Source of the DNA: Myxococcota bacterium
GTDB lineage: Bacteria; Myxococcota; Kuafuiibacteriia; Kuafuiibacteriales; Kuafuiibacteriaceae
Assembly: GCA_965223435.1 (NCBI GenBank)
Contig: CBDCWQ010000023.1
Location: 790,694 to 854,693, forward strand
DNA length: 64,000 nucleotides
Direction of reading: 5' to 3'
How positions within the stretch are numbered: position 1 is the stretch's first letter; every line of letters begins with the position of its first letter. Both the position numbers and the translations under genes were made by a program. The notes under the pieces are model-generated. The model ran no database searches, was not told the origin of the DNA, and worked only from the letters and a program-made list of their open reading frames with translations. Below, in pieces: positions 22,301 to 43,585 of the stretch.

Positions 22301-25300
22301 AGAGAACGAATTGGGAAAGTAGTGGGTGCCTCGGTACGTTTGCCCTTGGTAGGGCAGTTCTTTGACAAAGGCGGCGATGGTGTAGTCGAGACACTGCTCG
22401 AGTTTGGTGATGTGGTCCTCTTCGAGGCTCGGATAGTCTACGGACAACGAGAGCCAGCTGCAGTTGTCGATGGCCGAGACCGGGCTCGGGTGAAAGCTTT
22501 GACCCTCAAAGTGGCCCCCGGTGATGAACCGTTCGTTTGCTGGATCCCAGAGTTTGTCGAAGATCGCGTCTCGTAATCGGTTTCGCCAGCGTTTCAGGGC
22601 GTCCTCGAAGGGGTGGTATTCCGGTTTGGCCCGACTTCGGATGGTCTCCCAGTGTTTCAGGGCGTGGTTGAGAACGCTCAGCTGATCCAGATTGTGCTCG
22701 GTCACCACGTGGGTTGCAGGGGTGGGCACCTTGAGTGCGTCGAAATCCGCAGCGGTGAGGGTTCGGGGCTCAAGGATTGACTGCGGGTCGCCGGGGGCGA
22801 ACCGAGACACCACCGGGGGATCCTCGGGATTGTAGCGGCGGTATCCGATGGCATCGAGGACCTCGTAGTAAGCCCAGCCGATGCCTGGTTCTTCGAGGCC
22901 CAGGATGTGGGGCTCGTCTTGGTTCACCAACCCCAAGGTGGTTCGGCCTGCGGTCATAAGGCCCGCGTTTTGGTGCGGCTCCAGTCCTCGGAGTGCTTCG
23001 AAGTAGCAAGCGACGAGTGATTCTTGGCCGTCTTTGTTGAGGTCCAAAAAGGCGCGGTGGGTGATGAAGGTTCCGAGGCCGTGAACCGCCCAGGCATTGG
23101 CGCCGGTGACCAAGCGGGCATCGGCCCAGTCATCGGACCGCGTGTTCCATGAAAAAGGCCAGCCGAAGATCACGGCTTCGCCGTCGCCGTTTTGGCCTCG
23201 CTCGGCGTGTTGGCACAAGAAGTGGGCGAGGGGTGCGGCTCGGGGATCGCGGGTTCGGGTGTATTGCGCGAGGGCAATGCCCTGGGTGTAGGTCCATACC
23301 CGGTCAAATTCGGCCAAATAGCGGGTGTCGTCGTTGTCCTCGTCACCCAGGTATTCGAGCTGGGCGCCGAGTTCAGGGTTGAATAGGGCGTCGCGGAGGG
23401 TTTGGGCGCGGGCATGGTTTCCCGCGGCGCTCGGTGCTTCGAGCATAGGCGCTTCAGAAGAAGTCGCCAGTTCGGCATGCGGTGTGGGCGAGCTGGCGGG
23501 ACCGTCCACTTCCGCCGCCGCCAAGTGAACCCAGGGGTGCGCTTGCCTGAGCGCTTCCAGCGCAGCAGGTGTGGGCGCGCCGTGAGGAGAGGCCTCGGCC
23601 CAGATGGCTTGGTGCGGAGGCGTCTTCGCGTCGGTGGGTGCGCACCGATTGCTCAGCATGTGAAACGCGTCCACACATTCGATGGCCCCCGGCGTCGACT
23701 GGCCGCTCGCGGTGCGGGAAGGCGCGGTCAAGACGAAGCGCGCGGTCTCGGGCTCGGGCGTGATTCGGGCTCGGGTGGTCACGATGCGTGGGGCGTCATG
23801 TTCTCCCTTGGGGGCTTCGACCCAAGTCGCCAGGAGCAGACCTTGGTGGCTGACCACTCTGGGGGCGTTTTCGAGCCGATCTGCACCCTGGCCGTGGCTT
23901 CGGTGGTGGATGGGTTGTGCCTGTTGACCGCTCAGCAGGTGGGGCCGTGGCGTGGAAGGTTCGCCTTTTTGGGGCATGACCAGAGCCTGGATCGACCCCG
24001 GCTGGCCTGCGTTGCCCGCCTGGTAAAACACCGCCGCGCGGGTGTCGTCGGCGGCGAAGGCAGCGTCGGGAAGATAACCTTGAGCCCACTTTTCCGGGGA
24101 CGACCAGCTTTGACCGCGGTCCAAAGAGCGGGCCACCATCAATGGGTTGCCGGTGGCGGCGTTCGGATTGTGTGACGGGCCCTTTTCGTAGATGACCGTC
24201 AGCTGGCCGCCCTTGTTTCCAGAGACCTTGGGGTACGCGGGGCCCCATTCGGCGAGGGGTAAGGACGTCGATGGGTCATCACACGACACCGAGGCGGTCT
24301 CTTGGCGGTCGAACGTGTCGACCCGGTTGATCCGCCAGCGCAAAAAAGTGTCGTCCTTCCATACCCCTTGGCGCCATCCTTCTTCGACTTCGCGTTCTTC
24401 GTCGACCACGTGGACAAAGTTCCCCACCAGTTTGGGAACCCGGACGGTCTTTGTTGTGACTCGGGACCACGCATTTGGGCTCAAAGGCCGCTGCGCAACC
24501 TTGATGTGGTCTCGTTCGTCCCAGCTCCCCTCGACCAGATAGAAGGTTCGGCTTGGGTCCGCTTCACGCCACTGGTTGTCCATTCCGTTGCAGTCCAAAG
24601 CGTGGCGCCGGAGGGCCTGCCGGAATCCCTCGGGGCGCGCCACCGCGCCGAGCAGGGGGCATGCGAGCGCCTTTTCGGGCGTACGGGGCCCCGCCAACTG
24701 CCGATAGGGGCCAAAGCGTCCTGCCCAGTTTGGGTTTTTGACCGGTCGGTTGTCGAAGCTGCGGGTCTGACGGACGGCAATGGTGATCTGCTGGTCATCG
24801 AGGTGTAAAGACGGATGCTCCACGTAGTTTCTCTCGGTCCGTTCGAGGTAAAGACCAAAAGGCGCCCCCCCGTTTTGGGGGTTGGGCTCAAGGGCGAGGC
24901 TGTAGGATTCGGGAACGGGTTCAAGACAGTCGCAGGCATGGTCGTCGGTGCAGTTCGATGCGGGGTACAGCCGCCGGTAACGAACGACCTCGTCGTTGAT
25001 GGATCTTTTGGTTTCGTCAAACACGCTTCTTGGGGGACCTTCGAGGTTCTTGACGTAGAGCGCGCGGTGCGCTTCCCCCCAAACCAAGTGGAGGTCTCCG
25101 TGGATATCGATGCCGACGTCGATGCCGCGTTTCCATCCGGTGCTCTCGTGGACGACCATGGGCGTTTCGTCAAAGCCATAGCCCGCTTCTTGGCTTTGAA
25201 TGGCGTACACCCGGCTCTTGGCAGGTCCTTCGTCGGGGCCGCGTTCTTGGATCGCCAACCACACGATGGCGACCGCCTCCCGATGGGCGGCGATGGCCAC

Positions 25301-26878
25301 GTCTTGGATGAACCAGCCGGGGTTGGCTTGGGCCACGGTCAGCGGTGCGCTGAAGGACCCTCCTTTGGCCAATCGGTCGCTTCGGGCGTAGTGGATTTGG
25401 TCGGTACCGGAATCGGATTCGCCACGCGCCACATACGTGAGATGGGTGTGGACCGCATCGGGTCCTCGTCCAATGGCCATCTCGGGGAGCGTGGGCCGAT
25501 GGGGGCTTGCGGTGACGATACTCGGGGTTTCGAAGGTACCGGTCTTGGTGACTTGCTTCCTGGGTTGGGGACGAAGGGTGATGCGCGCGGAAGGAACGGA
25601 TTCGAAAGAGACGTCTCCGGTTCCTGGGAGCACCGCGGTGATGAACCAGACGGTGGTCTCGGTCGATGGCAGGGGACCCTCGTACCTTGGGTCGCTGAGC
25701 GCAATGGGCTTCGGGTCCGGATGCCGATACAATCGATAGCTCGGCCGCACGCCTTTCGGGATGGGTCTTCCGTTGCTGAGGAGTCGAGGCGCTTGCCACT
25801 GGAAGGTGGCGCGGCCTCCGTGGGACCACGCCAGAATTGACCTCGGGGGCCTCGGGGCATGGTCACTGACAAACGGCTCTTCATGGACGGTGATCTCAAT
25901 GGACTTTGTATGGGTGAGGCCCGCTCGGTCGAGGGCCACCAGTCTCAAGGGATGGGACCCCGCGGTCAGCGTCAGCGCGTGTTCGAAACGCCCTTCCTCC
26001 CAGGCGATGCTCTGATGTTGTCCAGTCCTGAGGTTTGTGAGTTCGAGCCCTTCGAGGTGGCGGTCCCAAACCCGGCCGCTGAGGATGTAATGAGGGGTGT
26101 AAATGTCTTCGTGGGATGGCCCGTCGAGAAGAAGCGCCGGACCCTCTTGGTCGACTGAACTGTGGAGCCCGTGGCCCGGCGCAGGACGCGCCGGGGGGGC
26201 GACGTCCAAACCGGTGCCATGAGGAGGCTTCTGATTCAAGGGATCGGTGTCCGGGGATGGGCTTTCTTCCGGCGAGGGTTGCCGAACCCAGTAGACTTGC
26301 CCTTGGGCTAGGGTAGAACCGCTCGTCCACTCTTTTGGCGCACCGGTTTGTGCATCCCACGTCAGGACCGTCGCGGGTGCCAGGGCGTCCACGTGCAGGG
26401 GTTTCTTTGCCCAAATCAATGCAGGATGCGTGGAGGACAATGGGGCGAGGGAGGGGGGCTCCCTCGGGATGTCGGACTCGGAAGCGCTCGGGGCCACGTA
26501 GATCCAGTAGGGTGCATGGGGGTGAAGGCGCCGAGTCGGCCGAGGGCCGGACTCCCTTTTCTCTGGGGGCCGCGACGCGGACCGGGCGTCGTACGCGACC
26601 CAGCGGTGCGAGGGCAGATCGTTTAAAAGATTTTTGGCTTCGCCGCCCCCAAGGAGATGCCATCCAGCGGAGAGTTCCAAGATCCCCGTGCCGCCGACGG
26701 GTGGGGCTTCATGCCGTTCGGGGGCGCGGCCGCAACCCAAAAAGAGCGCCAGCAGGAGGTGTATGTTCCGGTGGCGCCCCTCGGCATGCCTTCGGCGCCC
26801 TTGAAACGGGCGCTTCGGCACCCGTCGCTTTTCCCATCGCTTCATGGAGGTCCCCCCTCGATGCTTTTCTTGCACCAA
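16352..26878 (-). CDS. Giant secreted (lipo)protein paralog A, 3508 aa. Layout: signal peptide with lipobox-like LFLGC, bacterial Ig-like repeats, FN3-like region, BNR/Asp-box region with Cys cluster, large conserved helical core, unique ~1000-aa C-terminal region.
   Basis: Single uninterrupted ORF. Probable start MKRWEK… at 26845 rather than 26878. Asp-box 'SLDRGQSW'. Shares motif blocks with paralogs B and C ('DNCSWLSLSVDY', 'GTHYFPNSF', 'YHLEATAGLILGL', 'GFPYSS', 'RLVTGANAWAVHGLG', 'VVTEHNLD…LSVLNHA'). Confidence 0.8.
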   Translation of the reverse strand: MVQEKHRGGTSMKRWEKRRVPKRPFQGRRRHAEGRHRNIHLLLALFLGCGRAPERHEAPPVGGTGILELSAGWHLLGGGEAKNLLNDLPSHRWVAYDARSASRPPEKRESGPRPTRRLHPHAPYWIYVAPSASESDIPREPPSLAPLSSTHPALIWAKKPLHVDALAPATVLTWDAQTGAPKEWTSGSTLAQGQVYWVRQPSPEESPSPDTDPLNQKPPHGTGLDVAPPARPAPGHGLHSSVDQEGPALLLDGPSHEDIYTPHYILSGRVWDRHLEGLELTNLRTGQHQSIAWEEGRFEHALTLTAGSHPLRLVALDRAGLTHTKSIEITVHEEPFVSDHAPRPPRSILAWSHGGRATFQWQAPRLLSNGRPIPKGVRPSYRLYRHPDPKPIALSDPRYEGPLPSTETTVWFITAVLPGTGDVSFESVPSARITLRPQPRKQVTKTGTFETPSIVTASPHRPTLPEMAIGRGPDAVHTHLTYVARGESDSGTDQIHYARSDRLAKGGSFSAPLTVAQANPGWFIQDVAIAAHREAVAIVWLAIQERGPDEGPAKSRVYAIQSQEAGYGFDETPMVVHESTGWKRGIDVGIDIHGDLHLVWGEAHRALYVKNLEGPPRSVFDETKRSINDEVVRYRRLYPASNCTDDHACDCLEPVPESYSLALEPNPQNGGAPFGLYLERTERNYVEHPSLHLDDQQITIAVRQTRSFDNRPVKNPNWAGRFGPYRQLAGPRTPEKALACPLLGAVARPEGFRQALRRHALDCNGMDNQWREADPSRTFYLVEGSWDERDHIKVAQRPLSPNAWSRVTTKTVRVPKLVGNFVHVVDEEREVEEGWRQGVWKDDTFLRWRINRVDTFDRQETASVSCDDPSTSLPLAEWGPAYPKVSGNKGGQLTVIYEKGPSHNPNAATGNPLMVARSLDRGQSWSSPEKWAQGYLPDAAFAADDTRAAVFYQAGNAGQPGSIQALVMPQKGEPSTPRPHLLSGQQAQPIHHRSHGQGADRLENAPRVVSHQGLLLATWVEAPKGEHDAPRIVTTRARITPEPETARFVLTAPSRTASGQSTPGAIECVDAFHMLSNRCAPTDAKTPPHQAIWAEASPHGAPTPAALEALRQAHPWVHLAAAEVDGPASSPTPHAELATSSEAPMLEAPSAAGNHARAQTLRDALFNPELGAQLEYLGDEDNDDTRYLAEFDRVWTYTQGIALAQYTRTRDPRAAPLAHFLCQHAERGQNGDGEAVIFGWPFSWNTRSDDWADARLVTGANAWAVHGLGTFITHRAFLDLNKDGQESLVACYFEALRGLEPHQNAGLMTAGRTTLGLVNQDEPHILGLEEPGIGWAYYEVLDAIGYRRYNPEDPPVVSRFAPGDPQSILEPRTLTAADFDALKVPTPATHVVTEHNLDQLSVLNHALKHWETIRSRAKPEYHPFEDALKRWRNRLRDAIFDKLWDPANERFITGGHFEGQSFHPSPVSAIDNCSWLSLSVDYPSLEEDHITKLEQCLDYTIAAFVKELPYQGQTYRGTHYFPNSFSDPYITPSNDHETLYHLEATAGLILGLKRFVDAHPEREQSSAFAQELDVLYTDMNRFVRDHGFPYSSRRMQDLMTVLDSSTAAIWFIDVYDEIQGGVRDLDRPLANYARGVDVRRAQTVIDDAWEALKGRALHNFEDRLFTAYAGPRLEDGRRDPAWGAYIGEGDPAQYRVRLWITEAGHERLATSSIRQVPGGDAPPMTEIADVPVNTTAVWVEAFARKRPPEGLLSHLNPWGLFDEVEIVLKGRVRDPPGSARTLMLTLIIDDVEWFVSLYHVGDSGEFEFAYPAGQEGFPNPTIDEEGWAPTAPGNRPLYQREDGQWTDVPPPGVEPEPIHNLPSTKADIQAVPVARLMSPTAPHIRASSVYRFGDYRGWEHLPWTAGAGVWSFHHRFGGHHRYEIIDISQGLGGVEDSLRGDTAAVGPVVSRRLAKSERPVTLLEDQALAIFAARQRRQRIHLNRVGSDSTWFREWSKALMSALETRTYDGEEYLQFPYFFDSETGTAIEPYYQTGMQFLALYALSSYEQYFKWTDAINAKLARLALSIRDLYGVSESDGRLLTEGGDPTAARSALGLEKRSLELETPPILHEKTGFPRTPILSLTDHIFAWVSVKHLGSILFHGDRETAHFLMRWADELYVAIVNDFWDAERGRLIPFLQLLPDGTTTKVESDVVHRGTAALYALALFHSQSMSETVLFRWKEAITWVAENEAPDAAPAWSADSNLLQSPLLPVLAQRAAARLDARLEELAWHEFGSLVPGASPSITELAGLAILEEPVGLFGHGAGHMFFTLPPSTEPFDLPAFADLDVRLPDSSGVNIPDLNEVRDRLRYRYTETLAGLLMSDQNDHVFDTLLHRLMNIGSAYDLYVQKVSVRDWPQTVLSTPQEDRLLETVHELRTLCEGTRLLGTSPDLRPLVGVSCEEASEGFQAALQKRLGPKPVTSLTLEHPNTDLGFELIQLARVVTMPRPRDFSVARFGNLDVDETDKRESTIYAMLAHEDSMADQAGGTLSNKLRRLWTQAAEKTVTTVTPPYYFTPEIDLIALKNSASPNYWHRTAIELRAIEKHEKTPRFHTGAISPQVALDQLLYAQPTWIPGGAFIISDEADYAFFQENVRQLRRFINRYHSGNLPDLAETAGLTPLRVHLMMRTGRITESDFDRLANAARLPPDEKDTTKSSFVFTPEDNMPSNDEDRSSSKHSEKLGTTELAGLGPPGVIATKSRTLVLKELARHFDDLLALPPELAAVTAVAPSVLSYAASLGLEVDPGLLGVFVGSAPPSPHAWEPVGLVRGEDLLAPFGTYLKDEDVLRTTVPVYTSTDLGRDPLLGPSILMNDDRIYHVTIDWMGVDQTPFGSLGILTFEDGALFEVHALKSAHPQSDILAAFVKNHLRMKKAEESLSFLPDAMKAQILFWIELTIRGEFSQKEAERYAHFRTPPVTYMANAPGVEDSPPPSNPTESTDTLKQEASKLPDASAHPSPELPLQPIGVVPPKEPQLGDGYGKSTQLMTLAALLRVSGMYVYSTAIPTSLKEHKRLTSPKNRAQTFILRNFAGLASVFLGTNKDMVQAVQTNFYEARHDLMNIHPVVDQALTPYPERSTAAIIEKLYALHKEELSPAKEKAGLWVPLHTVNPETGKGGPVLIGFSAFAEGLFGPNIRPRWGPPEENPNTLDPEIHEAKFPGPFAIIDVIPDPSAGALFETKRLYQPSQPFVRLENALLSMTLGQTYFVPACRVCRVPIEKTSAARVIDAMQTQFDDAFGVAKVIDDVFLPYRSIDLLAIKKKDPEEAFRVMSGQTGAALFGTALFLAFVPAIAKADGNTFEFEAEAIQIFMSSDWQVDRVLLKDVLKDLSPFELAPGPKPTVTLESYLRFLEDQWKEHLRMPQAGQTPLNPQETALNPQHRAALGFEPQAAAINTFNPINAFMHRTLQDDDERALYIATLNGPDTVQILRFWKEDATYPNGRMYFTPNQSVEEWNYWLLDEPNPTSAPDGD

Positions 26879-28100: not shown

Positions 28101-28723
28101 CAGGTCAACTCATTCGCGCCGGCTCTGGGCTCGAGTTCTTGGTAGCGGCGACGAAAGGCCTCTCGACCGCGTTTGATGCGCATCTTGGTCGCCGATAACG
28201 TGATGCCGAGCTTTTGGGAGATCTCTTCGTAGCTGAGGCCATCCAGATCGCGGAGCACCACGGGTATGCGGAGCGTGTCACCCAGGCTATCGAGCACGTA
28301 CGTGATTCTTGCTTGTTCTTGGGTTCGACCGACCATTTGTTCAGCCACAGGCGGTGTCTGCATTTCAGGCCTCGCCTCGATACTGGGGTCCACCATGTCC
28401 ACGTGGGTTCTTTTTCGGTTCTTCGCCACATAGTTGAGGCAGTGGTTGATCTTGATTCTCTGCAGCCAGGTTTTGAATGTGGCTCGGTGTTCGAATTTTT
28501 CGATGCCAAAGAACGCCTTCACAAAAACTTCTTGGGCGAGGTCCTCGGCATCTTGAGGGGCTCCAGTCATGTGTCTACAGTTGGCTTGGATATGGCCTTG
28601 GTGGCGGGCCACCAAGGTTTCGAACGCCCAAAGGTCATCCCGAGGCCCCGAAACGGTGCGCTCGACGAGCTCTTCGTCGGCCATCGCACCCAGGCTCTTC
28701 TTGGTGGGCCTTCCTTTGTCCAT
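28100..28723 (-). CDS. ECF-type RNA polymerase sigma-70 family factor.
   Basis: Region 2 'DLAQEVFVKAFFGIEKFEHRATFKTWLQRIKINHCLNYVAKNRKR' and region 4 'LSYEEISQKLGITLSATKMRIKRGREAFR'. Confidence 0.85.
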   Translation of the reverse strand: MDKGRPTKKSLGAMADEELVERTVSGPRDDLWAFETLVARHQGHIQANCRHMTGAPQDAEDLAQEVFVKAFFGIEKFEHRATFKTWLQRIKINHCLNYVAKNRKRTHVDMVDPSIEARPEMQTPPVAEQMVGRTQEQARITYVLDSLGDTLRIPVVLRDLDGLSYEEISQKLGITLSATKMRIKRGREAFRRRYQELEPRAGANELT

Positions 28724-29100
28724 GCCTTCCTATCGTTGGCGAACCCTTCGACCAGAGCTCTGCCCCAAAAGTCACATCCGCACGCGTGGCCGCTGGCCGA
28801 CAAGAAAATCCAGTCGTTCTGACCCGTTCCGGGGCCTTTTCTGCCCCCGCCGGCACACGGTCCTCGTCTTATCCTCACCTGGGGTTCGATAGGGAGCCCT
28901 TCGTTGCTGGCGTGCGGCCTGGAAAATCAGCTTCGCCCTCCTGCCGGGGGCCCGGCGGACAGGGTGAGAACTATGGGAATTTACCCTGTTTGTCTCGCGG
29001 CTGCGATGGGCAGGCCGCCCGTCGGGTTGTGTTGTCGGTGGCAAGCCGCCAAGCTCAGCCGGTGTCGACCGAGGGTGTGAGCCCCAGCGTGCCGCGGAAA

Positions 29101-31239
29101 ATGCCTGGCATGGAGTATCTGGACAGGGTTCCCCAGTCTGCGATCCTTCTTTTTGGCATTCAGCTTGAGCGAAACGCTGCGTACCAGTCTTTCAAACAGC
29201 GGTTTCCCGGAGCCCAGCACTTGAGCTTGGACGGAGGCCTCAAAAAAAACCTCAAGGGAAAAAAGAGGGGACAACGGACCTGGCAAGCCATCGAAGACCT
29301 CAAAAAAGCCCAACCCCAGGTCATCTTGGTGGTGCAAAACTACCGCTATCTCAAACTTTTGGCATTGACCGCCTCGGGCGCGATCGTTCTCGTCTATCGG
29401 GCCGGACGCATCACCCCCTTTGGGCTGCTTGGGGCTGCCATACCCATGGAGCGCACCTTGCGGGCGCGCGCCCAAAACGGAGCCCGTCGCCTTTTGAGCA
29501 CGGTGCTCAAACCCAAGGTTCCTGAGCCCATCGGCGCGGGAAACGATTACAGTTTCATCAAGCGTCGGGTCAAGACCGACTCCCCTGCATCTTGGCACCT
29601 GAAGCTTTCGGTGGTGATTCCCGTCTACAACCGCAAAGCGGTTCTCGACAAAACGCTGGCGGGTCTTTGTCTTCAGACCTACCCCAAGGACCTGTTTGAG
29701 GTCATCGTCAGCGATGATGGGAGCTCAGACAACCCCAACTCTGTCATCGACCGGTATCGTGACCGGCTCAACATACGTTACGTTTGCCAAGAAGATCTCG
29801 GTTTCCGAGCCGCCAAAGCGCGCAACCGGGCCATTTTGGCGGCCGACGGTGAGGTGATCGTATGCCTTGATTGCGATATGCTGCCACCGCCTGGGTACCT
29901 CGCTGCCATGGCAAGGTGGTTTCACGTATACGACGGCCCCCTTGCGGTGATAGGCTACCGGAAGTTTGTCAACACCGATGATGTGAACGCCGATGAGATT
30001 CTCGCCGACTTCGGGGTGGTGCATCGCCTCCCACCGGTGCCCGCACCGCTTGCCATTCGCGTCAGAGATCGCCCCTATGAGGACTGGAGGGTTGCGTCCA
30101 CCGAGAAGTCAGAAGGCTTGAAGACCCACCGCGTCCCGTATAGCGTATGCGCTTCGGGCAATGTGGCTTTTGGGCGTCAGTTGGCGCTTGATGCCGGGCT
30201 TTTTGACGAGGCTTTTTGCCAGTGGGGTGGAGAGGATATGGCTTTTGCCTATCAGCTTTATCGCCGTGGTGCGTACTTCGTCTACGAACCCCGCGCCGAT
30301 GCGTACCACCAAGACCATCCGGACTACGCCCGCCGCGCCGAATCGCAAAAAGCGTCGCGCAGGATGCTGGGTAGACGGGTGCCGTTTTGGCGAAAATTTG
30401 TCGAGGACCGCGAAGGCCCCTTCGAGGGCCCAAAGGTTTCGGTCTACATACCGGCCTACAACTGTGATGCCTGGCTGGTACGCACCATCGAAAGCGCCCT
30501 TTGCCAGACGCTCGAAGACCTCGAAGTCTGCGTATGCAACGATGGCTCGACCGACCGAACGCAAGAGGTGCTTGAGACGCACTATGGCAGTCATCCGCGG
30601 GTTCGCTTTGTGACTCAAGAAAACCAGGGCATCGCCGCTGCGTCTCGAGCCGCGGTTGATTTGTGCCGAGGGGAGTACATTCTTCAACTGGACTCTGACG
30701 ACGAACTTTTACCCTACGCGGCCGAGACGCTGGCCGCGGTCCTTGACAGCGATGTCTCTATCGCATTGGCGTACGGCGGTTTCGAAATTCACGATCCCGG
30801 GGGCCTCCTGTATGAAAAAAAAGAGTCGGTGCCTCAAGCTTTTGACAGCTTTGATCTCCTTCTTGGCTGCGTGACCTCCGCGCCGCGGATGTTTCGGGCC
30901 CGAGACTACTACCGCACCGAGGGCTTCGACCGTTCTTTGCTCAATGCCGTGGACTACGATATCTACCTGAAATTGGCAGAACAGGGCCGCGTACAGGCGG
31001 TTCCTGAGGTTCTTTACCGCTACTACGTGCACGGTCAAAACACCTCATTTCGTGAGCGCGCCACCCAGTTCAAGAACCATCGCAAGGTGGTCGAAAACGC
31101 GCTCAAACGGCGGGGACTGGACTGGGAGATTACCGTGCCGGATCCGTCTCGGCCGCGGGGGCTGCGTTTACACCCACCCGGGGGCCTGTTCCGCAGCGCG
31201 CTCACCCATCTGGCGTTTATGGTCGCGGAGTCGAAGTAG
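29101..31239 (+). CDS. Tandem two-domain family-2 glycosyltransferase (GT2-GT2, ~712 aa).
   Basis: Two GT-A cores: 'LSVVIPVYNRKAVLDKTLAGLCLQTYPKDLFEVIVSDDGSSD…VIVCLDCDMLPPPGY' and 'VSVYIPAYNCDAWLVRTIESALCQTLEDLEVCVCNDGSTDRT…ILQLDSDDELLPYA'. The track ORF 28477..31239 extends through non-coding upstream sequence. First plausible ATG is 29101 (MPGMEYL). Confidence 0.8.
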   Translation: MPGMEYLDRVPQSAILLFGIQLERNAAYQSFKQRFPGAQHLSLDGGLKKNLKGKKRGQRTWQAIEDLKKAQPQVILVVQNYRYLKLLALTASGAIVLVYRAGRITPFGLLGAAIPMERTLRARAQNGARRLLSTVLKPKVPEPIGAGNDYSFIKRRVKTDSPASWHLKLSVVIPVYNRKAVLDKTLAGLCLQTYPKDLFEVIVSDDGSSDNPNSVIDRYRDRLNIRYVCQEDLGFRAAKARNRAILAADGEVIVCLDCDMLPPPGYLAAMARWFHVYDGPLAVIGYRKFVNTDDVNADEILADFGVVHRLPPVPAPLAIRVRDRPYEDWRVASTEKSEGLKTHRVPYSVCASGNVAFGRQLALDAGLFDEAFCQWGGEDMAFAYQLYRRGAYFVYEPRADAYHQDHPDYARRAESQKASRRMLGRRVPFWRKFVEDREGPFEGPKVSVYIPAYNCDAWLVRTIESALCQTLEDLEVCVCNDGSTDRTQEVLETHYGSHPRVRFVTQENQGIAAASRAAVDLCRGEYILQLDSDDELLPYAAETLAAVLDSDVSIALAYGGFEIHDPGGLLYEKKESVPQAFDSFDLLLGCVTSAPRMFRARDYYRTEGFDRSLLNAVDYDIYLKLAEQGRVQAVPEVLYRYYVHGQNTSFRERATQFKNHRKVVENALKRRGLDWEITVPDPSRPRGLRLHPPGGLFRSALTHLAFMVAESK

Positions 31240-31245
31240 ACGCCC

Positions 31246-31262
31246 CTGATCCATGGGATCAG
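31246..31262. terminator. Short inverted repeat (ctgatcc-atg-ggatcag) in the 19-bp gap between the convergent GT2 and giant-paralog-B stops.
   Basis: 7-bp stem. The only intergenic sequence between two convergent stop codons. Confidence 0.25.
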
Positions 31263-34200
31263 TCGGGGCCGCCCACCAACCATTTGGTTTCAAGGAGGCC
31301 TTTGGGACCAATGGTTTCTTTGTACGATTTGAGCGTTGTCCCTGTGGGGTCGACGACCTTGATGTAGCGCTTCCCGTACCCTGGGTTGTTCGCGGCGTGG
31401 AAGAACTCGAAGCGGTAGTTGCCGTCGGGCAGTTTCTCGGTTCGGAAATGTTGGCCCTTGTCCTTGGCGTGGCGGTAAAACTGGTTGGCGCTTGTTCTCA
31501 GGCCACCGGTGAATCCTTTTCGCGCTTCCTGTCGTGAAAGGAAATGGATCGTTGGATTTGTGGAGACCTCAGAAGAAATGGGTCTTTTCAAAGGCACGGT
31601 GAAAATGTTTCCGGTTCGGCCCAGGCTGATTTTTGTGGCCGATGCGAACTTTGGGGCGGTGGTGCTGGCAACCTTGACAAAACCCAAACCCGCGAGGGCG
31701 GCGGTTCCAAGCACGGCACCTACTTTGGCGACGGGAATGGGGGCCAGACCCAAAAGGTCGAGCAAGGTGATGGGGATGGCTTCGCCATTGCCCTCGTAGG
31801 GGTAGTGCACGCTAAACGCGACGGCTTGGTCGCCTTGGTCGTCTTCGTACTCGAGGAGAATTTGAATCACCGGACAATCGGGATTGGTGTAACACTGGGA
31901 AAGATCGATGTTGTCGAGTGTTTCCTTGGTCTCCTCGTCGGCGTAGAGTCGTTCTTCTTCGTGCAATCGCTCGAGGTAGTCTGCAAGGCTGTAGATGCCG
32001 TGATCCTCAAGCTCTTCCCAAAAATCGGGGTCAATGAAAAGACCGCGTGGAAGTCGACCGTCACTGGCGAGACCCTCGAGGCTGTTGCCTGATTCGGGTG
32101 CTACGTTGACCGTGGGGCGGTTTTCGTTATGAATCGCAACGAAGATCAGGTCATCAACAAAAGACTGCCCGTCGTACACTTTGCCCGGCACCAGATCCGT
32201 TGAAAAGTCATTGTATTGGGCACGGAGTGTGCCCTGGTAGTGCTCCCTATCATCGGGATGGTGTGCGCCTTCTTGGAACCTGAGGTTGATGACCGTCTGG
32301 GCACGGGCATCCTCCGTGCCGTACCCCCAAACCGCGTTGATCTTTTGGGTGAACCGGGTCCGGTACGACTGACCGCCGCTGCCCACGGCGACATGCACCA
32401 GACGCTTGAGCTTCTGAATCGCTTCTTCCCTGGCATCAAGCTCCTGCTGGTAAGGCTCGGCACCCCGGAAGGGCCAAAAGGCGTCCACAATGGCTTCGTA
32501 GGCTTCGAGCCTGGTGCCTGACAGGTAGAGCCGGTCCAGCGCGTATCGTGTATCGCCTGTTTTTTCGAGGAAGCTTCGAATCTCTTTGAGCACCACCATT
32601 TCGTAAAAAACGCTTTGGGCCTCAGCGCGCACCCAGGCGTTGAAGTGGGCTTCACGCCACGCTTTTTCTGACAAGGCCGCGCGTGACCATCCGGCGAGGG
32701 TACAGGTGCCGGAGCCATCCGCGCAGGCGTACACCTGGTCTTCGGTCTGTTGATGAAACAGGGGGTGATTGTGGGCGATGCGATGGGTCAGTTCGTGCGC
32801 AATGTGGCCAATCAACCGTTCGGGGTTGAGGGCATGGCGTTCCGATATGAGCACGATTTGTTTGCCTACGGTTCCAGGAACAAAACCGGTTGGGCCGTCG
32901 GTCCACTTCATTTTCAAGCCCCGATCGGGGAGCTGCCTCTGAAGCCAGTTGAACATTGCGGACCGGCCGATGACCTCTTTCACCAGGGGGACATTGAGTG
33001 GGCTGTGGGCGTCTACGATGCGTTTGATGTCTTCCCGTGTTTGCTCGTCGAGGTCCTCGCTTGAGGGTGCGTGGCCGAAGGTGTCGTCATCGGCGTGTGC
33101 TTGGGTTGCTCCGAGCGGCTGTTTTCGGGGCTCGTTTGGACGTTCCTCGGCGTCGGGGAAATGCAACACCCGAGTCTCGATGAGGCCTCCATCGGTTTGA
33201 TTGATAAACTCCAGGGTGATGACCTTCTGGGGAGGGGAGAACGCCGACTCAGGGAACCCGGGAATGCCGCCGCATACCCGCAGCATCGAAGAGGCGCGCG
33301 GGACCAGGGTACGCTCGGGTACGCCGAGCGTTTCAGCCGGTTGGCCGTCCAAGAGGATATTGAGCCAAGAGGAGTCACTTCGCGCGGACCAGACGATGTT
33401 ATGGTCCCCAGTGTTTTCCAGGGGAACGTCCGCACACGGGCTGTGTTTCGAGATGGCTGGGATGGGGGCGGGGAGGCCAAGGCCTGAAGCACTTTGGACC
33501 AAATAGTCGGCGACCCGATGCATTTGACCGTCCACGTTGCGGGTGGCGGCGGCCGTGGCCTCCAACAACGGTGCGCACCGTTCGTCCTCGCCAAGGGCCC
33601 GGCAGCCTAGGAGGAAGTACACGAGTTCGTTGAAGCGGCCTAGGGTTTGGAATTCGCCCACTTCCTGTACGCCCATGGCGCCGCGCCCGCTCTGGTCGTG
33701 GACGGCGGCCAGGGTGCCGGGGTGAAGTCGGGTGTGAACCCAAGTCCCGTGTGGGCTGGTCACCCGGTGCTCGGTGGGACCCTCGGTTGACCCCCCGAGT
33801 CCGCTTCGGGTCAGGACCGTAAGCAGGTCGGCTTTGAAGCCGAGGTAAGGGCTCAAAATGCTCTGGGGCGCATGGGCTTGAATGTCCGCGGCATCCAGGC
33901 GAACGTCACCGATTTCTTGGTATGTGGTGTACGCTGTGTGGGCGACGATGCGTACCGACGAGTCCATATCCAAGAGGGCTTGGTTTGCGGCGCCCACGAT
34001 GCGATCGATGTCTTCGTTGAGTGCATCGACGCCCCCCGATTCTCGGACGGCAGAAGCCGTATAGAGAATGGCCATGTCGATGACGAGGGCATTTTCCTCG
34101 ATGGTGGGGTCCGAGTCGGGGATGCCGGGTCCGGGCGAGGCCTTGCCCCCGACCAAGGGGCGTCGGTACGCGCGGGGGAACACGGACGGGATCTGGGGAA

Positions 34201-37200
34201 GTTGCACATACCCAGAAAGGAAACTTCGGGTTTGGGGGGTGCTCAGCACCACGGCATACATGGGGTCGAATCTGTCTTGGGTGGGTGCGCGCTGAAAATA
34301 GGCTTCGAGCAGCCCGAGATCCTCGTAGGGTGACGCCTTAGCGCAGGCATCGATGCGATGCTGCTCAGCCTCCTCGACGGAAAGCGCGAGGAAGTCTTCG
34401 GGACTGAGCGTCTGGGCGTCGAATCGAAAAACTTCGTAACACACTTCTTTGCCAGGCAGCTCGGTGTTTCCGACCTCTTCGCTTGCGGGCAACACAAAGT
34501 GAACTCGGGGGTTTTTGGGTGTCGCCAGTTCGGTCCCTACCGACGGATTTACGGGGTCAAGAATCGCGGTCGCAAGACCGACTTGGTGAAGGGCCAGTTC
34601 GTTTTTGGGGGTTCCGGTTGCCGAAATATGCACCCGGGGGTCGTTCGGCTCTACAAAGGTAAATCCAGCCTTGTACGCATCAGCTTTTTCTTGGCTCAAT
34701 CCGACGGCGTTCATCATGGACATCAAGTGGGTCTCCAACAGGAGTCCGCTTCGCATGGCACGGTGCACAATAGACGGATCAAGGCCCGCTTGCCGGGCCA
34801 GCTTCGGAAGTTGGCCGCCGGCCTCGGCATTGATGAATCGGCGCAAATGCCCGGCGTTGGTGGCTTCGGCGGAACCGATGACCCCCACCCCAGGCTCTAA
34901 CATCTTCCACGCTTCGGGTAGGGGTTCTCGGGTCGGTATGCCCCCGAGTGCATATCGGGTTTGATGCTCGGGACCTTGGAGCACAAGGTATTCCAGGGCT
35001 TTGCGTCCGGACGCTTCCAGGGAGGCTTTGTTTCCAAGGCCGATGAAGTTGATGCCTTCGACTTCGAACCAGGGCGTTCTACCCAGGTGTCTTTGCTCGA
35101 GGAGCGCGTCTTGGAGGGTTGTTTGCCAGTGCGTTTGGAGCTGTTCTTTTCGCTGGGCGACAGACAGATCCGCGCTGAGTTCGACCGGGTCCGCTTCTCG
35201 AATGAAATCGAAGCTTACCGGGCCCTTGGGCGCCTGGACAATCTGGGTGTTTCCGTGAAGCGAATCGCCGTAGCTGTGGGGCGACGGGACATCGTCTCGG
35301 GTGAGTTGGTAGATGCGCTGGGTCAACTCAAAGGCGTCGTGAGGGTGCTCGATGAGGGCGGCCAGTCGAGAGGGGTCCTCGCTGGTTCCAGTACGGGCTA
35401 CGAGCAGAGCTTTGAAGTGGGCGCTGGCGGCTTCGCAAGAGAGTCCCAACGAACGGTTCAGATCCAAGCCGGTGAGGGCGCCTTGGTTTCGGCTTTCGCA
35501 GAGGTTTTGGAGCGCCCAAACCGTATAAGCCACCCGGTGGCTGTAGGTCTCTTCCCGGTAAAAACTGCGCCACCTCTCAACCGGAACACCTTCGTGCAGG
35601 GCTTCGGCCAGGGCGACCAGCTGGACCATACGGTTCATCCCGGTGTCGAAGCTTTGGGGCCGGTAGGGTGACAAAAAGAGGCTGAGCAGGGTATCCAATC
35701 CCTGCTGCTCGATGCGGCGCTGGACCCTTTCTTCCCAATGGAGGGCGCTTGGGCTTCGTACGAAGGCCACCGGGCTGGCGGTGACCCCAAACAGGTCTTT
35801 GGGATGTTCGGCCAACAGCATGGCCGCCATCGAACCCGGACCCGCCGATGCCGAAAGCAGGGTTTCAAGGCGGCTCCACGCCAGTTGCTCGAGCCGCGGG
35901 TCGATGCGTGCGCCGCCGCGCTCGGCGAGGACGACCAGGGCGAAGGAATTCGAAAAGTCAAAGCCCTTGCCGTCTGCCCACGTGTCCTTCAGCGCATGGG
36001 TCAGTCCGGCCAGGCGGTCCAGCGACAGGTGCGCGCGCCGTACAAGACCTCTTTCGAGCGCGAACAAGGTGTAGAGCGCATGCATGCCGATGCTGTCTTC
36101 GGTGGCATCGACCTTCTGTTCGTCGGATGGGTCTTGGATAAACCGCAAGGGTCGATCGTCTTGCCAAAAAGCATTCTCAAGTTTGTCCTCGACCGAGCGT
36201 TTGAGATCTTTTGCGAGGGCTCGGCCCTTTGGGTCTGGCAGAACCTCGGCTGCCCGGGCAAAGGCAAAATACGCATAGACATGGTCACGGAGCGAGGCGG
36301 ACGCAAAAACGGGAAGGGATACGTCTTCCGGATGGGGTTCTTCGGCGTTTCCTTCGAGGGCCTTTGCCCACGCCTCGGGAAAGCCGTTTCCGCTTTGGAA
36401 AAAACCTTCCAGGGGGTGCCCGGCTTCCTGGTGGAAATAGGCTGTCCGCATCGATTGCTGAAGTTTGAGGATGTGCTCGGCCAGCGTCTGGGCACGCGCC
36501 GGGTGCACCGGTTCGAGGGCCCGGTGGAGGGTCGCCAAGGCGTACAGCGCCATCATTTGGCTTCCGGTTTGATAGTAGGGCGCCACCGCGACCCCGGTTT
36601 CCGCGTCGACGGCGTAGGGAATCAGAGCCAGTGGGTTTTCGGGATGAAACACAGTCTGGGTGACCCGCTTTAAGGCCCAGCCCCAGGCCCAAGCCTGCTC
36701 GAGATCCCCTCGGTGGACGGCGGCCAGAACCGCCAGCGCTTGGTCTTCGGTTCGGGTGATGGGACGGGCCCCTTCTTGGTCCGATTTCGTATACCCCGAC
36801 ACCAACAGGGCCAGGTCCTTTGCGTGGGCGGCGGCGATGGTGTTTTGGGCGTGGTCTTTCAGTTCGAAGGTTTCGCTGTCGGCTCCGTGGATGAACCATT
36901 CACCCTTTTTTCCCGAGTAGCGTGGCGTAGGCTGGTAGACCGCGTGGGCTGAGGTGGCATTCTGAATGCTGGTTGGGCCCCCGGTGGTGGCGAGTATCTC
37001 GCCCGAGCCTCGTCGAAGACGTGCGATTTTGGTCGAGAGGGTGAACCGGTGGGCGTCCCCAAGAAAGACCACCGCGTCTTCTTGTTTGAGCGCGGTTTCA
37101 AAGTGACCGCTTTCGTCGAGGGGGACGTCTTTCACAAAAAGCTCTCGCCCCTCCTGCCGAATGGAAAGTAAGACGCCAAGCTCGGGCCCGATTTCGATGC

Positions 37201-40200
37201 CGGTCACGTCACCGCGAAACACGTAATAGAAATCGTAAAAATAACTTGATGGCAGAAGACTACCGAGTCCCTCTAGCGGTCTTTTTTCGACCCAGGCCTC
37301 CACGGAGATGTTGGCGGCGTTGACGGGGGCACTGTTGCTGAAGTCGACTGGCTCGTCCTCGTAGCCCGGGTGCCCGAGCATGGGGCTTTTTTGTTTGGGG
37401 GTCTGGGCTGGGGCCGCGTAGATCTGGTTTTCGCCCGACGCCGGATCTGCCGAACCCCAGGTCAGGTTCTGGTCCGAGCCGTGAATTTGAAACGCGGTGT
37501 TTGTGGGGCCTTTGTCCCATTCCATCGCGGTCAACTTGGACCAGGCATCCACCACCCAATCTGTGGTCCGATTCAGGTCCGTGCCTTGGGCGTAGTTGAC
37601 CAAGGGTCTATCGAGATCGTTTTCGGTTCGTTCGATGTAGTCGTAGACATCGATGTACCAGATCAAGGCGGTGCTTGAGGTCAAGAGGGTGGAGAGGTCC
37701 TGGATTCTCTGGCTCGAATACGGAAAGCCTTCGCTTTGGACGTACGATTGGACACCGGCCCAAAGGTGGAGCGCTTCCTGCCTGAAGGCTTCACTTCTCG
37801 GGTGCTCTGGGTGTTCATGAACAAAGACGAGGAGCCCCAAAATGAGGCCGGTGGTGGCTTCGAGGTGGTAGGAGGCCTCCTGCAGGTCCGTTTGGTCGAT
37901 GTAGGGGTCTTTGAAGCTGTTCGGGAAGTAGTGGGTACCGCGGTAGCAGGTGCCATTTGTCTTCAGATCGTCGGCGAAGTGGTCGATGGTATAGTCCAAG
38001 CATATGGCCATTTTCTCGACGTACTCGTCGGGAAAGTCTGAGGCTCTGTAATCCACCGACAACGACAACCAGCTGCAGTTGTCGATGGCCGACTCCTCGT
38101 TGGCCTCGAGGGACTCGCCGCGGAGCAGTCCGCCCGTGATGACCCTCGATGGGCTGTCAATGACCCGTGCCTCCCGGCATCCGTTGGCCTCTTTTTCGAC
38201 GTGCAGCGGTTTGTCGCTCCAAAGCGCCTTGAAGGTACCGTTTCTGAGGTCGGTGCGCCAAGTCTGAAGCTCGTCGAGTTGGTCTTCGAGTCCTAGCTTG
38301 GACGCGTTTTTGATCGCGTGGTTGAGTACGCTCAAAACATCGAGGTTGTGTTCGGTGACTACGTTTTGTGCGAGGGCGGGCTCCTTGAGGGCCTCCCACT
38401 CTTCGAGCGAAAGCGTTCGGATGCCGCCATCGAGAAGGCTGCCATCCGCTTGACGGAGGCTCACACGAATGTTGGGCTTTTGGTCCTCGTTGTAGGCTTG
38501 ATACCCGACGGCGTCCAAGACGTCGTAGTAGGCCCATTCTTCGTTCGGCCGGACGGGCGGGGTCATGTCTAGGCGAAGTTCGTGCGGGCTTCTTGCACTT
38601 TGGAGGCCCTTTGTGGTTTCGCCCGCGGTCATCAGCGTGACCCGCGTTCCGTCAGGCGCCACAACGTCGTCGTGCCGGTGGCGTTTGAGGCCTTCGAGTG
38701 CCTGCAAGTAGCAGGTCCTGAGCTTCGTTTGTTCGGAAGCGGAGGCTTCCTCAAAGGCGGCAGAGCTCACAAATACGCCAATGCCTTGAACGGCCCACGC
38801 GTTGGCGCCGGTGACGAGGCGTGCGTCTTTCCACGAGTCGTTGTTGGTGTTTTCTGAAAAATGCCAACCGCGGATGATGGTGCGACCCTGCCACTCGCCG
38901 GTCTCAGCATGGGTGCACAGCCAACGGGCCATCCCCCGCGCGATTTTCTTGGCTTCGGGCCCGGGCGTTCGGGCTTGCTGGGCGAGGGCGATGCCCATGG
39001 TGTAGGCCCATACGCGGTCGAAGCCCGCAAGGTATTTGCCGTCTTGGTGTTCGGGGTCGTTGATGATGTGCGCGACTTGCTGGGCCTCCACGCCGAGGCT
39101 CTCCCAAAAAGCGGGATCCCTGAGGCGCAACGCGCCCGGATCGCTCAGGTCGGGCTGGTATTCGACTTGGTAGTAGACTCTCGAGTCTTCATCCATAGAC
39201 GTGCCTTCGCTGTCAGACGCGCTTGGCGCTTCCGAATAGCGAATGAGGCCATCCCGTAGACGGGTGGCCCACAGATGGTTGCCCGTCAGGTACGTGGGGA
39301 GCACGGAGGTTGAGGCGTGATGCTCGAGGCCGTCTTGCCCTTTGAGGTTGACTTGGTCCACATCGTGGCCGCTTTGGGTGGCTCCAGAGCCGGTGTTGCC
39401 GAAGAGGCCCACATAGGCGGTGGCTTGGCCTCCCTGAATTTCGATGTCGACGCCGCCGTCGTCTTCGGTTGATGCGTTCGGGGTGCCATCGTGCAAAAAG
39501 GCCTGAAGTCCGGATGGGCTTGGGCTGGCTCCGTTCGACCCGAGCCGGACCGATGTGTCGACGTCGAGTTGCTGGTGATACTTGTTTTCTACGGTAACAT
39601 GCACTCGCGCGGCGTGGCCCGCACGAACCTGTGTGGGCAGCTCGGTGTCGATGCGGCTGGCCGTTCCCTCGCGTGAGGAGCGGGTGATGATCACGCGCTC
39701 CTGGCCATCCTGGCCCTGGGCCGGCCTTACCCAGGTCGCCAAGAAGAGGTTTTCGTGGGTGGTGAGCGACGGCACCCCGGCCAGGGTGTCTGCGGCTTGG
39801 GCGTGACTCTTAAAGTGGATGGGCTTGGCCGGAAAGGGGCTGAGGACTTCGGCATCGGTCCAAGAGCGCCCAGCGCTTTGGCTGCGACGGATCTGGATGA
39901 CCCCCTCGTCGTCTGTTTTGGGTACATAGTAGAGCACGCCGACTTCACCCTCTTTGGTGACCCCAAGGTCGGGCAGGTAACCGAAGGCGATGTGATGGGG
40001 GGCGGACCATGTGCCTCCGGCTATGGAGTGCTGCACCATGATGGGGTTGTGCCCGGCGACGTTCGGGTTCGAAGAACTTCCGGTTTCATAGACGACAAAT
40101 TGGGTCCCATCGGGTCCGGTGTAGATCCGAGGATAAGAATGGGTTTGATCTTGCTCCGCTTCTTTTTCGAGGGTCGCCACGACCGAGATTCGCCAGCTTT

Positions 40201-43200
40201 CAAACCGACCATCCACCCAGGTGCCTTGGCGCCAGCCCGTTTCGACGGTTTGCTCTTCTTCGTGCCATGTCAGGAGCCCGCGTTCGATGGGCCAGTTCGA
40301 GACCTCGACGGTGGCGGTCGCCGGCTCAGACCAAGCCCCTTCGACCACGGGCCGCTGTGCCACTTTGATCTGGTCCTCTTCGTGCCAGGTGCCGTCATGA
40401 AGATAAAAATACCAGTTCTTTTCGTGTCGAACATTGGGGTCGTACGAAAAGAACGTTTGGTTCCCTTCGCCGTGATAGTAGGTGTAGGCGTTTTCGTTGC
40501 CCGATTCTAGGTCCCGTCTTCTTGCCCTTTCTTCCTCTGAAAGCCGCGTTCGGGCCTGCGGACGACCCCCTTTGGCTCGATATTCGTACACCTGCAGGAA
40601 GCCCATTTGTGCGCGCCCTGCGCCTTCTTCCGGGCACCAATGGGTTCGGGTGCTTCCGTCCCGGCTGGTGACTTTTTTGTCTAGGGGCGGTGCGAGGGGG
40701 CCATACTCTCCGGTCCATTCGGGGTTTCGGAGCGGTTTGTCATCCCACATTCGATTTTGGCGGGCGACGATCGATATACGCTCGTTGTCGATGTGGAGCG
40801 AGGGTTGGTAGACCCAGGCCTCTTCGACACGCTCGAGATAAGGGCCAAACGGTTCGTTCGTTTTGCGATTGTTCTCAAGTCCGTACGAGTAGCGTTCGTT
40901 CGGCATGTCGTTGCATCCGCATGGGGGGGAGGTGTCCTCACATTTTTGTCGATAGACCCGATAGTAGTCGACCACGATGTCGTTTTTTGTCCGGTAGCGG
41001 CGATCGAACACGCTTTCGGGCGTGCCCTCGAGGTTCTTCAGGTAGTAAGCCTTGTTGCTTTCTCCCCAGACCAGATGGAGGTTGTGGAAGCGGTCGTACC
41101 CAAGGTCGAGTCCTCGTTTCCACGCCGGGGTATCATGAACGAGTCGGGCTTCTTTGAAGTGCGCACCCGCCCTATCGCTTTCGACCACCCACAGTTGACT
41201 GCCGGTCGTTTGGGTGTCCTCGCGGCCGTCTTTTTCGATCCAGCCGATGGCCAGTTTATGCGCCTTTGCGTCCAGTGTGAGATCGGTGATGGCTCGTCCG
41301 GGTTTCGAACCTTGGAGGACGGCCGGTTCGGAAAAGGAATGGGGCTTGCCTGCTTTTTGGCTGCGGACGTACAGCAGTTGGTCGCCCTGTCCTTGGCGAC
41401 CCGGCACGACGTACACGAGGTGGGCAACCAGTTTTCCACCGACTTCGGAAACCGCGGTTTGAGGCAGGACGACGGCTCTTTGACCTCTCGTTGCTGGACT
41501 TGGGGCCTCGAACTGACCGGGCGCGGTGACTGGGCGCTGGAATCCAACTTCGACCTTGAGGATGTTTGAGGCCGACGACTCGATGGCCTGACCGCCTTGG
41601 TCGAACAGGACCGCGGTGACGTAATACCTGTAGACTCGGTCCAGGGTTTCGACCTCGTCCGCAAACGACGGTGTGTCCAAATCTGCCGAGCCGTCATTCG
41701 AAATCTGGACGTCGTCACGGTATACCCGAAATCGGGTGGTGAGACCGCGCGGTATCGATGAACCATCAACCAGTCGTTTGGGCGGTTGCCATTGAAGCTT
41801 GACGCGCTTTCCCACCGAATGTCCGATGAGGTCGGTTGGGGGCATGGTCGGCTTTTCCAGTTGGTATAGATCCTTGTAGGTGATCTCCAAGGTGGTCGTG
41901 ACCTGGTTGTGCGCGAGGTCGGTGGCCGTGAGTTCGAGGACGTTGAGGCCGTCTTGGAGCTGAACCAGGGTCTTGAACCCGCCAAGCTCGTCGGTGGTGA
42001 GCGCCTTGGTGGAGCTTGCGGTGGGCTCAAGGATGGTCAACCGCCTTAGATGGGGCTCCATGACTCGCCCGCTGAGGGTGTACGCACGGTCGAAGACCGT
42101 TTCCTTGAGCGGACCGTCGAGGCTGATTTTGGGGACCTCTTGGTCGAAAACGATGCTTCGTGAAACCTGGTTCTCGAGACCCACCAGATCGCGCGCCACC
42201 ACCACGAAGTCATTTTTGTTTTCGTTCAGCCTCACAATGGAACTGAAGGCGCCGTTCTTTTGGGTCACCACCAGCTGGTTGATGCGGACGAACATCAAGT
42301 TTTCGTCCGAGACACTTCCGGTGACCGTTGCAAAAGGGACGTTGGTGTAGGTGACCGGATGAACGAGGTTTTTGACCTCGAGAAACGGAGGCTCAGCGTC
42401 CGAGCTCAAAGAAATGGGCGCGTCCATTTTGTTGAAGAAACCAACTTTTGAGAACAGCGCTTGGGGCGGTGATGCCTCGTCAGAGGCCAGGCTTTCGACC
42501 CGAACCGATTGGACCTTTTCCACCACCTGAAGATCGTCGAAATAGACGTAGACCCGCTTCCAAGAGGGGGATGCGCCTCCTTCAATGAGGGTACTGAGGC
42601 GGATGCGCTCCATCTGTTCGCCTTCACCAAGAACGACCAATTCGGCGTCCATGTTTTCTGACTGGGCTGCGATGTCTACGAAAAACCCGATCGCATTCTC
42701 GGGTCCGTGAGGGCTCTTTTCGGGAGCGGAAGCCAGGTCTGGCGCAAAGCGCATCTTCACGCCGTCCACGAGCAACCCCAAGGAACGTTCGGTGACAAAG
42801 CCTGCTTGGTCGGTTGCGACAAACCTCAGGACGTGAAGGCCGGGGGACAAAGATGCCCGTTCGAGTCGCTGTTCGAATTGGTCTTGGTACAAGGGGATCG
42901 TTTGACCGTCGACTTTGAGGTCGACCAGGTTTTGCTCAACGACTCGACCGTAGAAGAACACCTCCTCTTGCTGAAGGGCGAGCTGGGATGGGTCTGGGAG
43001 CGTGAACTCGATGATGGGTGGCGTGTCGTCGAAGACAACTTCCCTCAACACTTGGCTTTGGTGGCCAAAGAAATCGATGGCTGAGAAGTCGATGAGGTTG
43101 GTTCCGGGAGCCAACCAGAACGCATGTTCGAAGCTTTGATTTCGCCGTCCTACCAAAAGGTCGTCGATAAAAAATGCGAGCAGATGATCATCGTAGACTT

Positions 43201-43543: not shown

Positions 43544-43585
43544 GGGGGGTCTTTCTCCTAAAAGACATATGTGGGTCCTGGTCAT

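Follow-up and report, generated by a model that had tools for sequence, protein, structure and literature searches.

The 64,000-nucleotide stretch of Myxococcota bacterium DNA analyzed here (assembly GCA_965223435.1, contig CBDCWQ010000023.1, positions 790,694 to 854,693 of the forward strand) is called the window below, and all positions are counted from its first letter. It carries three giant paralogous open reading frames (ORFs) on the same strand, A (16352-26878, 3508 aa), B and C (43858-57444, 4528 aa). The subject of this report is B, a 12.3-kb ORF whose 3' end (31259-32830, aa 3586-4108) had been described in a first-pass annotation as a zinc-peptidase-like motif followed by a Gly/Ala-rich linker and a basic, toxin-like terminal domain. 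Database searches strongly support the assignment of the last 100 residues of B, aa 4009-4108, to a mobile family of C-terminal toxins, as a genuine member. The parts of B are as follows, by window coordinates and strand.

31259-43585, minus strand: ORF B, 4108 aa plus stop codon, a giant predicted lipoprotein (its translation is one ORF).
43469-43585, minus strand: N-terminal signal region of B with the lipobox AIGLSAC (Cys39), by inspection of the translation.
34628-42400, minus strand: core common to A, B and C, about aa 396-2986 of B, by BLASTP.
31262-34627, minus strand: C-terminal extension found only in B, aa 2987-4108, by comparison with A and C.
31781-33028, minus strand: region of unknown fold with a His-rich motif, aa 3520-3935, with no detectable homologs and no internal repeats.
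32765-32797, minus strand: HELTHRIAHNH, aa 3597-3607, candidate zinc site, a sequence motif.
31667-31777, minus strand: Gly/Ala-rich hydrophobic segment LLDLLGLAPIPVAKVGAVLGTAALAGLGFVKV, aa 3937-3973, by Kyte-Doolittle scan.
31262-31561, minus strand: predicted toxin domain at the C-terminus, aa 4009-4108, from an unnamed polymorphic-toxin C-terminal (CT) family.

Inspection of the translation reveals a K/R-rich n-region at the start of B, then a hydrophobic stretch and then the lipobox with Cys39 (Met15 is an alternative start), and paralog A has a comparable lipobox, LFLGC. From this leader, B reads as a Sec-exported, lipid-anchored protein. An N-terminal secretion or trafficking determinant is among the features by which polymorphic toxins are recognized (Zhang et al., 2012; PMC3482391), and B possesses one in its lipoprotein-type leader. 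Over the full length of B, Pfam returned only Glucodextran_B, plus weak matches to Big_13 and BACON_2. The Gly/Ala-rich linker and basic tail are both recognizable at the other end of the protein. The segment at aa 3937-3973 holds the sole 19-aa window of B with a Kyte-Doolittle mean above 1.6 and is its only transmembrane-like stretch, and aa 4009-4108 contain 17 Lys and Arg versus 9 Asp and Glu residues, giving an isoelectric point (pI) of 9.94, compared to 5.27 for the entire protein.

An exhaustive phmmer search with the last 140 aa of B against 1.84 billion cluster representatives (50% identity) returned 135 representatives at E ≤ 1e-3, 93 at E ≤ 1e-10, with a best E of 6e-26 and 47-53% identity in the top matches. 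This similarity is far beyond chance. Without P0067 and P0104, which are repeat proteins, 133 representatives remain. Query residues ~41-139 were matched in every case, in targets of 54 to 3887 aa, and in nearly every representative the first-listed match ends no more than about 15 aa from the C-terminus of the target, the exceptions being P0022, P0079 and P0122 (45-81 aa); in B, the domain runs to the last residue. Tail homologs were recovered only by exhaustive search and by profile query. Word-indexed searches with the last 628 or the last 104 aa found nothing, despite the presence of homologs in the same database.

The proteins that carry this domain are of several kinds, and none has the upstream sequence of B. 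Long carriers comprise proteins with RHS_repeat/DUF6531, fusions of SpvB, TcdB_toxin_midN, FG-GAP and RHS, and teneurin-like YD-shell proteins. The RHS core-end motif PxxxxDPxG precedes the domain by 43-259 aa in 23 of the 133 representatives, which places the domain where RHS proteins have their encapsulated toxin. Carriers of middle size begin with a WXG100_2 or T7SS_signal region and are encoded by genes adjoining WXG100 genes, and the domain also occurs as stand-alone modules of 95-190 aa. The sharing, by recombination, of a C-terminal toxin domain among otherwise unrelated carriers is a further recognized trait of polymorphic toxins (PMC3482391), and the tail of B displays it. Of the 69 family members with 100 aa or more ahead of the domain, 21 have a hydrophobic stretch there comparable to that of B. 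Unnamed families have been reported recently (PMC13483458; bioRxiv 10.1101/2021.10.19.465003). The present family has no name in the libraries searched: 37 members scanned individually had no Pfam match at E up to 10, there was no NCBIfam match and, with a profile, no PDB sequence match. Where database names are given for members, they are "hypothetical protein", and literature searches on the sequence motifs gave no match.

A partner of the domain is encoded directly downstream. In 11 of 11 independent contexts, the gene at or overlapping the toxin stop codon belongs to one family of ~130-aa proteins. These contexts are two RHS orphan-cassette arrays (L001, L002), two WXG100 loci (L003, L009), a stand-alone copy (L004), a stand-alone cassette found on seven contigs (four of which were fetched, L005-L008), a Shinella plasmid (L010), a 3887-aa protein without RHS repeats (L011), a 999-aa protein (L012), a Tc-like RHS protein (L013) and a teneurin-like RHS protein (L014). 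Members are related by pairwise BLASTP at E 1e-10 to 3e-31, and a family hidden Markov model (HMM) recognized the intact copies at E 1e-8 to 9e-42, the weakest being the divergent 228-aa version in L011; the L004 gene is a frameshifted remnant (E 3e-12). The proteins are acidic (pI 4.4-5.5), have no N-terminal hydrophobic signal, share the motifs WASFVRRGY and RLDEIGDxVDG, and have no Pfam, NCBIfam or PDB match. By standard logic (e.g., PMC13483458), we infer from this pairing the signature of a toxin-immunity pair. The toxin would act in the cytoplasm of the target, since the immunity proteins lack a signal peptide. The earlier description of the tail of B as a toxin-like terminal domain therefore gains strong support, in that the tail belongs to a mobile CT family present on RHS, type VII secretion system (T7SS) and other carriers with a dedicated immunity family.

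The motif RLDEIGDxVDG (immunity alignment A4; e.g., L001 8386-8793) showed a weak likeness to BH3 in a PDB profile search (BID and BAK, E 0.13-0.8), most likely a chance resemblance of amphipathic helices. On the JGI metagenome contigs L005-L008, a 106-aa stand-alone toxin domain and its immunity gene lie beside a DDE transposase in an island rich in PIN, helix-turn-helix (HTH) and Gp49-type toxin-antitoxin genes, and therefore the pair may also circulate as a toxin-antitoxin-like or orphan cassette. In the Shinella sp. plasmid NZ_OZ000537.1 (14021-14709; L010), the toxin gene has lost the part for the N-terminal half of the domain. Next to it comes an immunity gene that is intact (HMM E 7e-39), and then an RHS core fragment; RefSeq calls both the toxin and the immunity gene hypothetical protein. 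Here, the immunity gene is retained after decay of the toxin.

A domain that sits so constantly at the extreme C-terminus of very different proteins, and that has no known activity, might instead be a secretion or sorting signal, similar to the C-terminal domain of the type IX secretion system (T9SS). We consider this highly improbable. A sorting signal would not be expected behind the RHS core-end motif, where encapsulated toxins lie, nor on WXG100-type T7SS substrates, whose export signal is N-terminal. The existence of the 95-190-aa stand-alone modules and the partnership with a small, acidic, cytoplasmic protein in all 11 contexts likewise argue for a toxin.

AlphaFold, supplied with a 58-sequence alignment, modeled the domain with a predicted local distance difference test score (pLDDT) of 93-98, as beta1-alpha1-alpha2 followed by a five-stranded antiparallel sheet. 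Foldseek found nothing better than E 0.35 in the PDB and no match at E ≤ 0.001 in BFVD, and the predicted fold is thus without a recognizable solved relative. The topology is reminiscent of RelE/BECR RNases; fold searches gave this no support, and the assignment was not made. Across the family, F, G, K, K and P are invariant and R, N, Y, T and K near-invariant. Among polar residues, R, N, K, Y, K, T and K are conserved, and no His, Asp or Cys is. Because the toxin is basic (pI ~9.6), the immunity protein acidic (pI 4.4-5.5) and His, Asp and Cys are not conserved, our preferred guess is that the toxin attacks RNA, DNA or a nucleotide by a metal-independent mechanism, and this is the weakest step in the chain.

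BLASTP homology among the paralogs stops at residue 2982 of B in the alignment with A (residue 2704) and at residue 2986 in the alignment with C (residue 2618), and a block of relatively high conservation (aa 2897-2964 of B, 45-50% identity to A) lies directly before this break. Beyond it extend 1122 aa in B, 804 aa in A and 1910 aa in C, and phmmer run with its filters off (--max) detected no similarity among the three extensions. The first-pass annotation was thus right that the C-termini of A and C are entirely different; its proposal that the paralogs carry different payloads is plausible and gains support, through the toxin domain, for B only. The A extension contains nothing recognizable by Pfam. 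In the C extension, Pfam matched Laminin_G_3 (aa 3179-3327, E 5e-22) and a partial Peptidase_S8, or subtilase (aa 3777-3936, E 6e-6); the latter could be a processing protease, placed like the proposed HExxH peptidase of B. Neither end had a plasmid match by tblastn.

The core of ~2,600 aa has Glucodextran_B and BNR-like matches near its N-terminus, and pattern scans of genome_contigs and metagenome_contigs with an alignment of the A, B and C cores were without a match, so that no orthologs are at hand. B and the ThrRS of the window have no entry in the exact-match gene index either, and the source genome thus appears not to be represented in these collections. A, B and C part ways at one homologous point, and the ends of A and C cannot be recognized as toxins. 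A conserved body, a common boundary and unrelated ends would resemble the organization of polymorphic toxin genes.

Between the boundary and the toxin domain of B lies the region with the HExxH motif. The motif had been noted previously and is present as described: LIGHIAHELTHRIAHNHP begins at aa 3591 (window 32815), HELTH occupies aa 3597-3601 and additional His residues follow at +8 and +10. An HExxH in a predicted helix of a non-catalytic repeat had been named in the annotation as grounds against a zincin; the region contains no internal repeat, so that these grounds do not apply. Its homology searches were uniformly negative. With four segmentations, no Pfam model matched at E up to 10, the zincin and Tox-MPTase models of Pfam being among those searched, and NCBIfam and PDB (phmmer) sequence searches were negative as well. 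For aa 3500-3960, no homolog was found in the word-indexed protein search, a weak negative as the 628-aa query had missed the tail homologs there too. Genome and metagenome pattern scans were negative, likewise weakly so because they detect close relatives only, and no plasmid homolog was found by tblastn.

The statistics on the motif were chosen after it had been seen. When B was shuffled with its composition preserved, HExxH appeared in 26% of the shuffles, flanks like those of a zincin in 5.5%, HExxHxxxH in 0.4%, six His within 19 aa in 1.9% and HExxHx5H, whose third His at +10 has the spacing of metzincins, in 1.9%. HExxH by itself is thus weak as evidence, and the wider group of His residues is unusual only to a moderate degree. 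It is roughly even whether this region is a real metallopeptidase. The rival possibility, that HExxH is a chance motif in a helical, non-catalytic region and that toxin release, if any, occurs by other means, falls just short of an even chance. It agrees with the frequency of the motif in shuffles, with the two HExxH motifs of paralog C, which lie in regions without metallopeptidase annotation, and with the lack of any match to a zincin model in Pfam, NCBIfam and PDB even at E up to 10. It accords less well with the extended pattern (small or hydrophobic before HE, uncharged inside, His at +8 and +10), which only 0.4-5.5% of shuffles reproduced. A zincin fold runs from a mixed beta-sheet through the active-site helix to a helix or turn with the third ligand. 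A single-sequence AlphaFold model of aa 3500-3960 had a mean pLDDT of 36 and was judged unusable; that it places the motif in a helix right after a beta-hairpin, the usual zincin arrangement, speaks against a chance motif with little weight. Also against a chance motif, a releasing zincin N-terminal to the toxin domain, which frees it by autoproteolysis, is a known polymorphic-toxin architecture (PMC3482391).

Farther upstream, at aa ~3165-3340 (window 33565-34090, minus strand; ALVIDMAILYTASAV..., then FNELVYFLLGC), B looks by eye like a metalloprotease of the reprolysin type whose HExxH has degenerated. Such a domain found no support in Pfam or PDB and was rejected.

The other end of the extension adjoins a gene of the opposite orientation, and the place that the immunity gene would occupy is taken up as follows.

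31240-31258, no strand: 19-bp gap to the convergent GT2 gene, the place of the immunity gene in all other contexts, with none here.
28477-31239, plus strand: convergent 920-aa protein with two GT2 glycosyltransferase domains (Pfam/NCBIfam), a neighbor outside the system.

The gene on the plus strand ends at 31239, so that it does converge 19 bp from the stop codon of B, as annotated. Its two domains span ~aa 377-625 and 655-763, and its N-terminal ~370 aa are unannotated. The gap is mostly a palindrome, TGATCC-CAT-GGATCA, which may form a minimal bidirectional hairpin. The absence of an immunity-like ORF downstream, also stated in the annotation, was confirmed by HMM search and is more striking now that all 11 other contexts are found to have one. 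Immunity HMMs built from five and from eight sequences found no homolog in the six frames of the window; the best match (E 0.09) lies in the antisense strand of a uvrD-like gene. An 82-aa ATG ORF (31035-31283, minus strand) starts 24 nt before the B stop and continues across the 3' end of the GT2 gene on the opposite strand. It was rejected as an immunity gene, being Arg-rich, of low complexity, antisense to GT2 and without similarity to the immunity HMM, and is probably spurious. The N-terminal 17 residues of the immunity protein from L002 have 65% identity to 31353-31403 (minus strand; tblastn E 0.007) inside the tail of B, in a frame other than that of B; this match is too short for interpretation and probably due to chance.

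A linked immunity gene is a defining feature of polymorphic toxin systems (PMC3482391) and B has none, as the single exception among 12 contexts. The tail, which is the sole copy of the domain in the window, deviates at two conserved columns, Q4076K, where 86% of the family has Gln, and F4037Y. Its GC content and its GC content at third codon positions (GC3) are the same as in the rest of the gene, with no shift; in composition it has fully converged on the gene around it and, because of this match, the tail is not a recent insertion. All this could be explained if the tail were a domesticated or decaying toxin copy that serves as a binding or structural module or has no function, and such a history would account for the absent immunity gene. 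We regard it as unlikely. B retains all five invariant columns (F4036, G4069, K4072, K4089 and P4094) and 21 of the 23 columns of at least 85% conservation, and its two deviations fall within the 0-5 seen in other members. The domain is intact to the final residue and matches the family HMM, among whose 37 sequences B is included, at E 1.3e-39. Because the linked immunity gene is missing, B is termed here polymorphic-toxin-like on a new carrier and not a canonical member of these systems.

Taken together, the sequence evidence makes it probable that B is a giant, Sec-exported, lipid-anchored surface protein whose extreme C-terminus is a polymorphic-toxin payload. In the working that we propose, B would be exported and displayed on the cell surface. 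The HExxH region, which lies ~340 aa upstream, may be a releasing peptidase that frees the C-terminal cassette (cf. PMC3482391). The Gly-zipper-like hydrophobic segment, 35 aa before the domain, might help it to insert into or cross a membrane, and the ~11-kDa domain would then act within the target cell.

The absence of immunity could be accommodated in three ways. The gene might be unlinked and lie elsewhere in the genome. Alternatively, the producer may never be exposed to the toxin, if a 4108-aa Sec substrate leaves the cell before its last 100 residues fold and if delivery targets non-kin. Finally, the copy in B might be the domesticated or decaying one considered above. A bolder extension, tentative and rather doubtful at present, is that A, B and C represent an unsampled class of giant lipoprotein toxin carriers with a ~2,600-aa body, a fixed boundary and interchangeable payloads. 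The B cassette would then combine a releasing metallopeptidase, a membrane segment and a new-fold toxin, with no self-immunity, and would be directed against non-kin or prey and not serve kin discrimination.

Whatever its role in B, the domain and its partner define a toxin-immunity pair family without a Pfam or NCBIfam model or a solved or recognizable fold, with 135 representatives across RHS, T7SS and other delivery systems, and this family lends itself directly to studies of activity and structure. B itself is a type of carrier not seen before for the domain, a 4,108-aa lipoprotein from a three-paralog cluster without detectable relatives. If the domain is active in B, it has implications for how a cell that makes a cytoplasm-acting toxin can do without the antidote, and for whether export order alone spares the producers of very long Sec substrates from self-intoxication.

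Comparison with known systems places B close to several of them. RHS/YD toxins (Rhs, WapA and TcB-TcC fusions) are, like B, large exported carriers with a variable toxic C-terminus, and many of them end in the same CT family (P0003, P0049-51, P0077, P0083, P0096). Unlike them, B has no RHS/YD repeats, PAAR, VgrG or SpvB by Pfam and no PxxxxDPxG core end, and has instead an unrelated ~2,600-aa core, common only to A and C, and no immunity gene. The N-terminal WXG or LXG domain that characterizes T7SS toxins was also absent from full-length B by Pfam. CdiA resembles B in being a giant surface-displayed protein with a conserved body, a sharp boundary and a variable C-terminus, in which a pre-toxin segment thought to aid membrane entry precedes a small, cytoplasm-acting CT toxin. 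Unlike CdiA, B has no FHA/haemagglutinin repeats in Pfam, the VENN boundary motif is not visible in its translation, there is no CdiB-like gene among the neighbors scanned and no cdiI-like gene downstream, and the predicted export route is a lipoprotein signal and not two-partner secretion. By the Pfam evidence, B is not an RHS, CdiA or T7SS toxin, as the defining repeats and domains of each are absent.

The likeness to toxins that carry releasing metallopeptidases (PVC-metallopeptidase and Tox-MPTase1-5; PMC3482391) lies in the HExxH region N-terminal to the toxin domain. Unlike those enzymes, B has no match to the zincin and Tox-MPTase models of Pfam, and its zinc site is a candidate motif. 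SitA proteins are far smaller than B and have a sitI immunity gene downstream of their own. Like B, these myxobacterial lipoprotein toxins, transferred by outer-membrane exchange (PMC5562445, PMC8546572), combine a lipobox at the N-terminus with a polymorphic toxin domain at the C-terminus. B differs from SitA in its 4108 aa and its missing immunity gene, and what they have in common is only the plan of a lipoprotein with a toxic, or in B presumably toxic, C-terminus.

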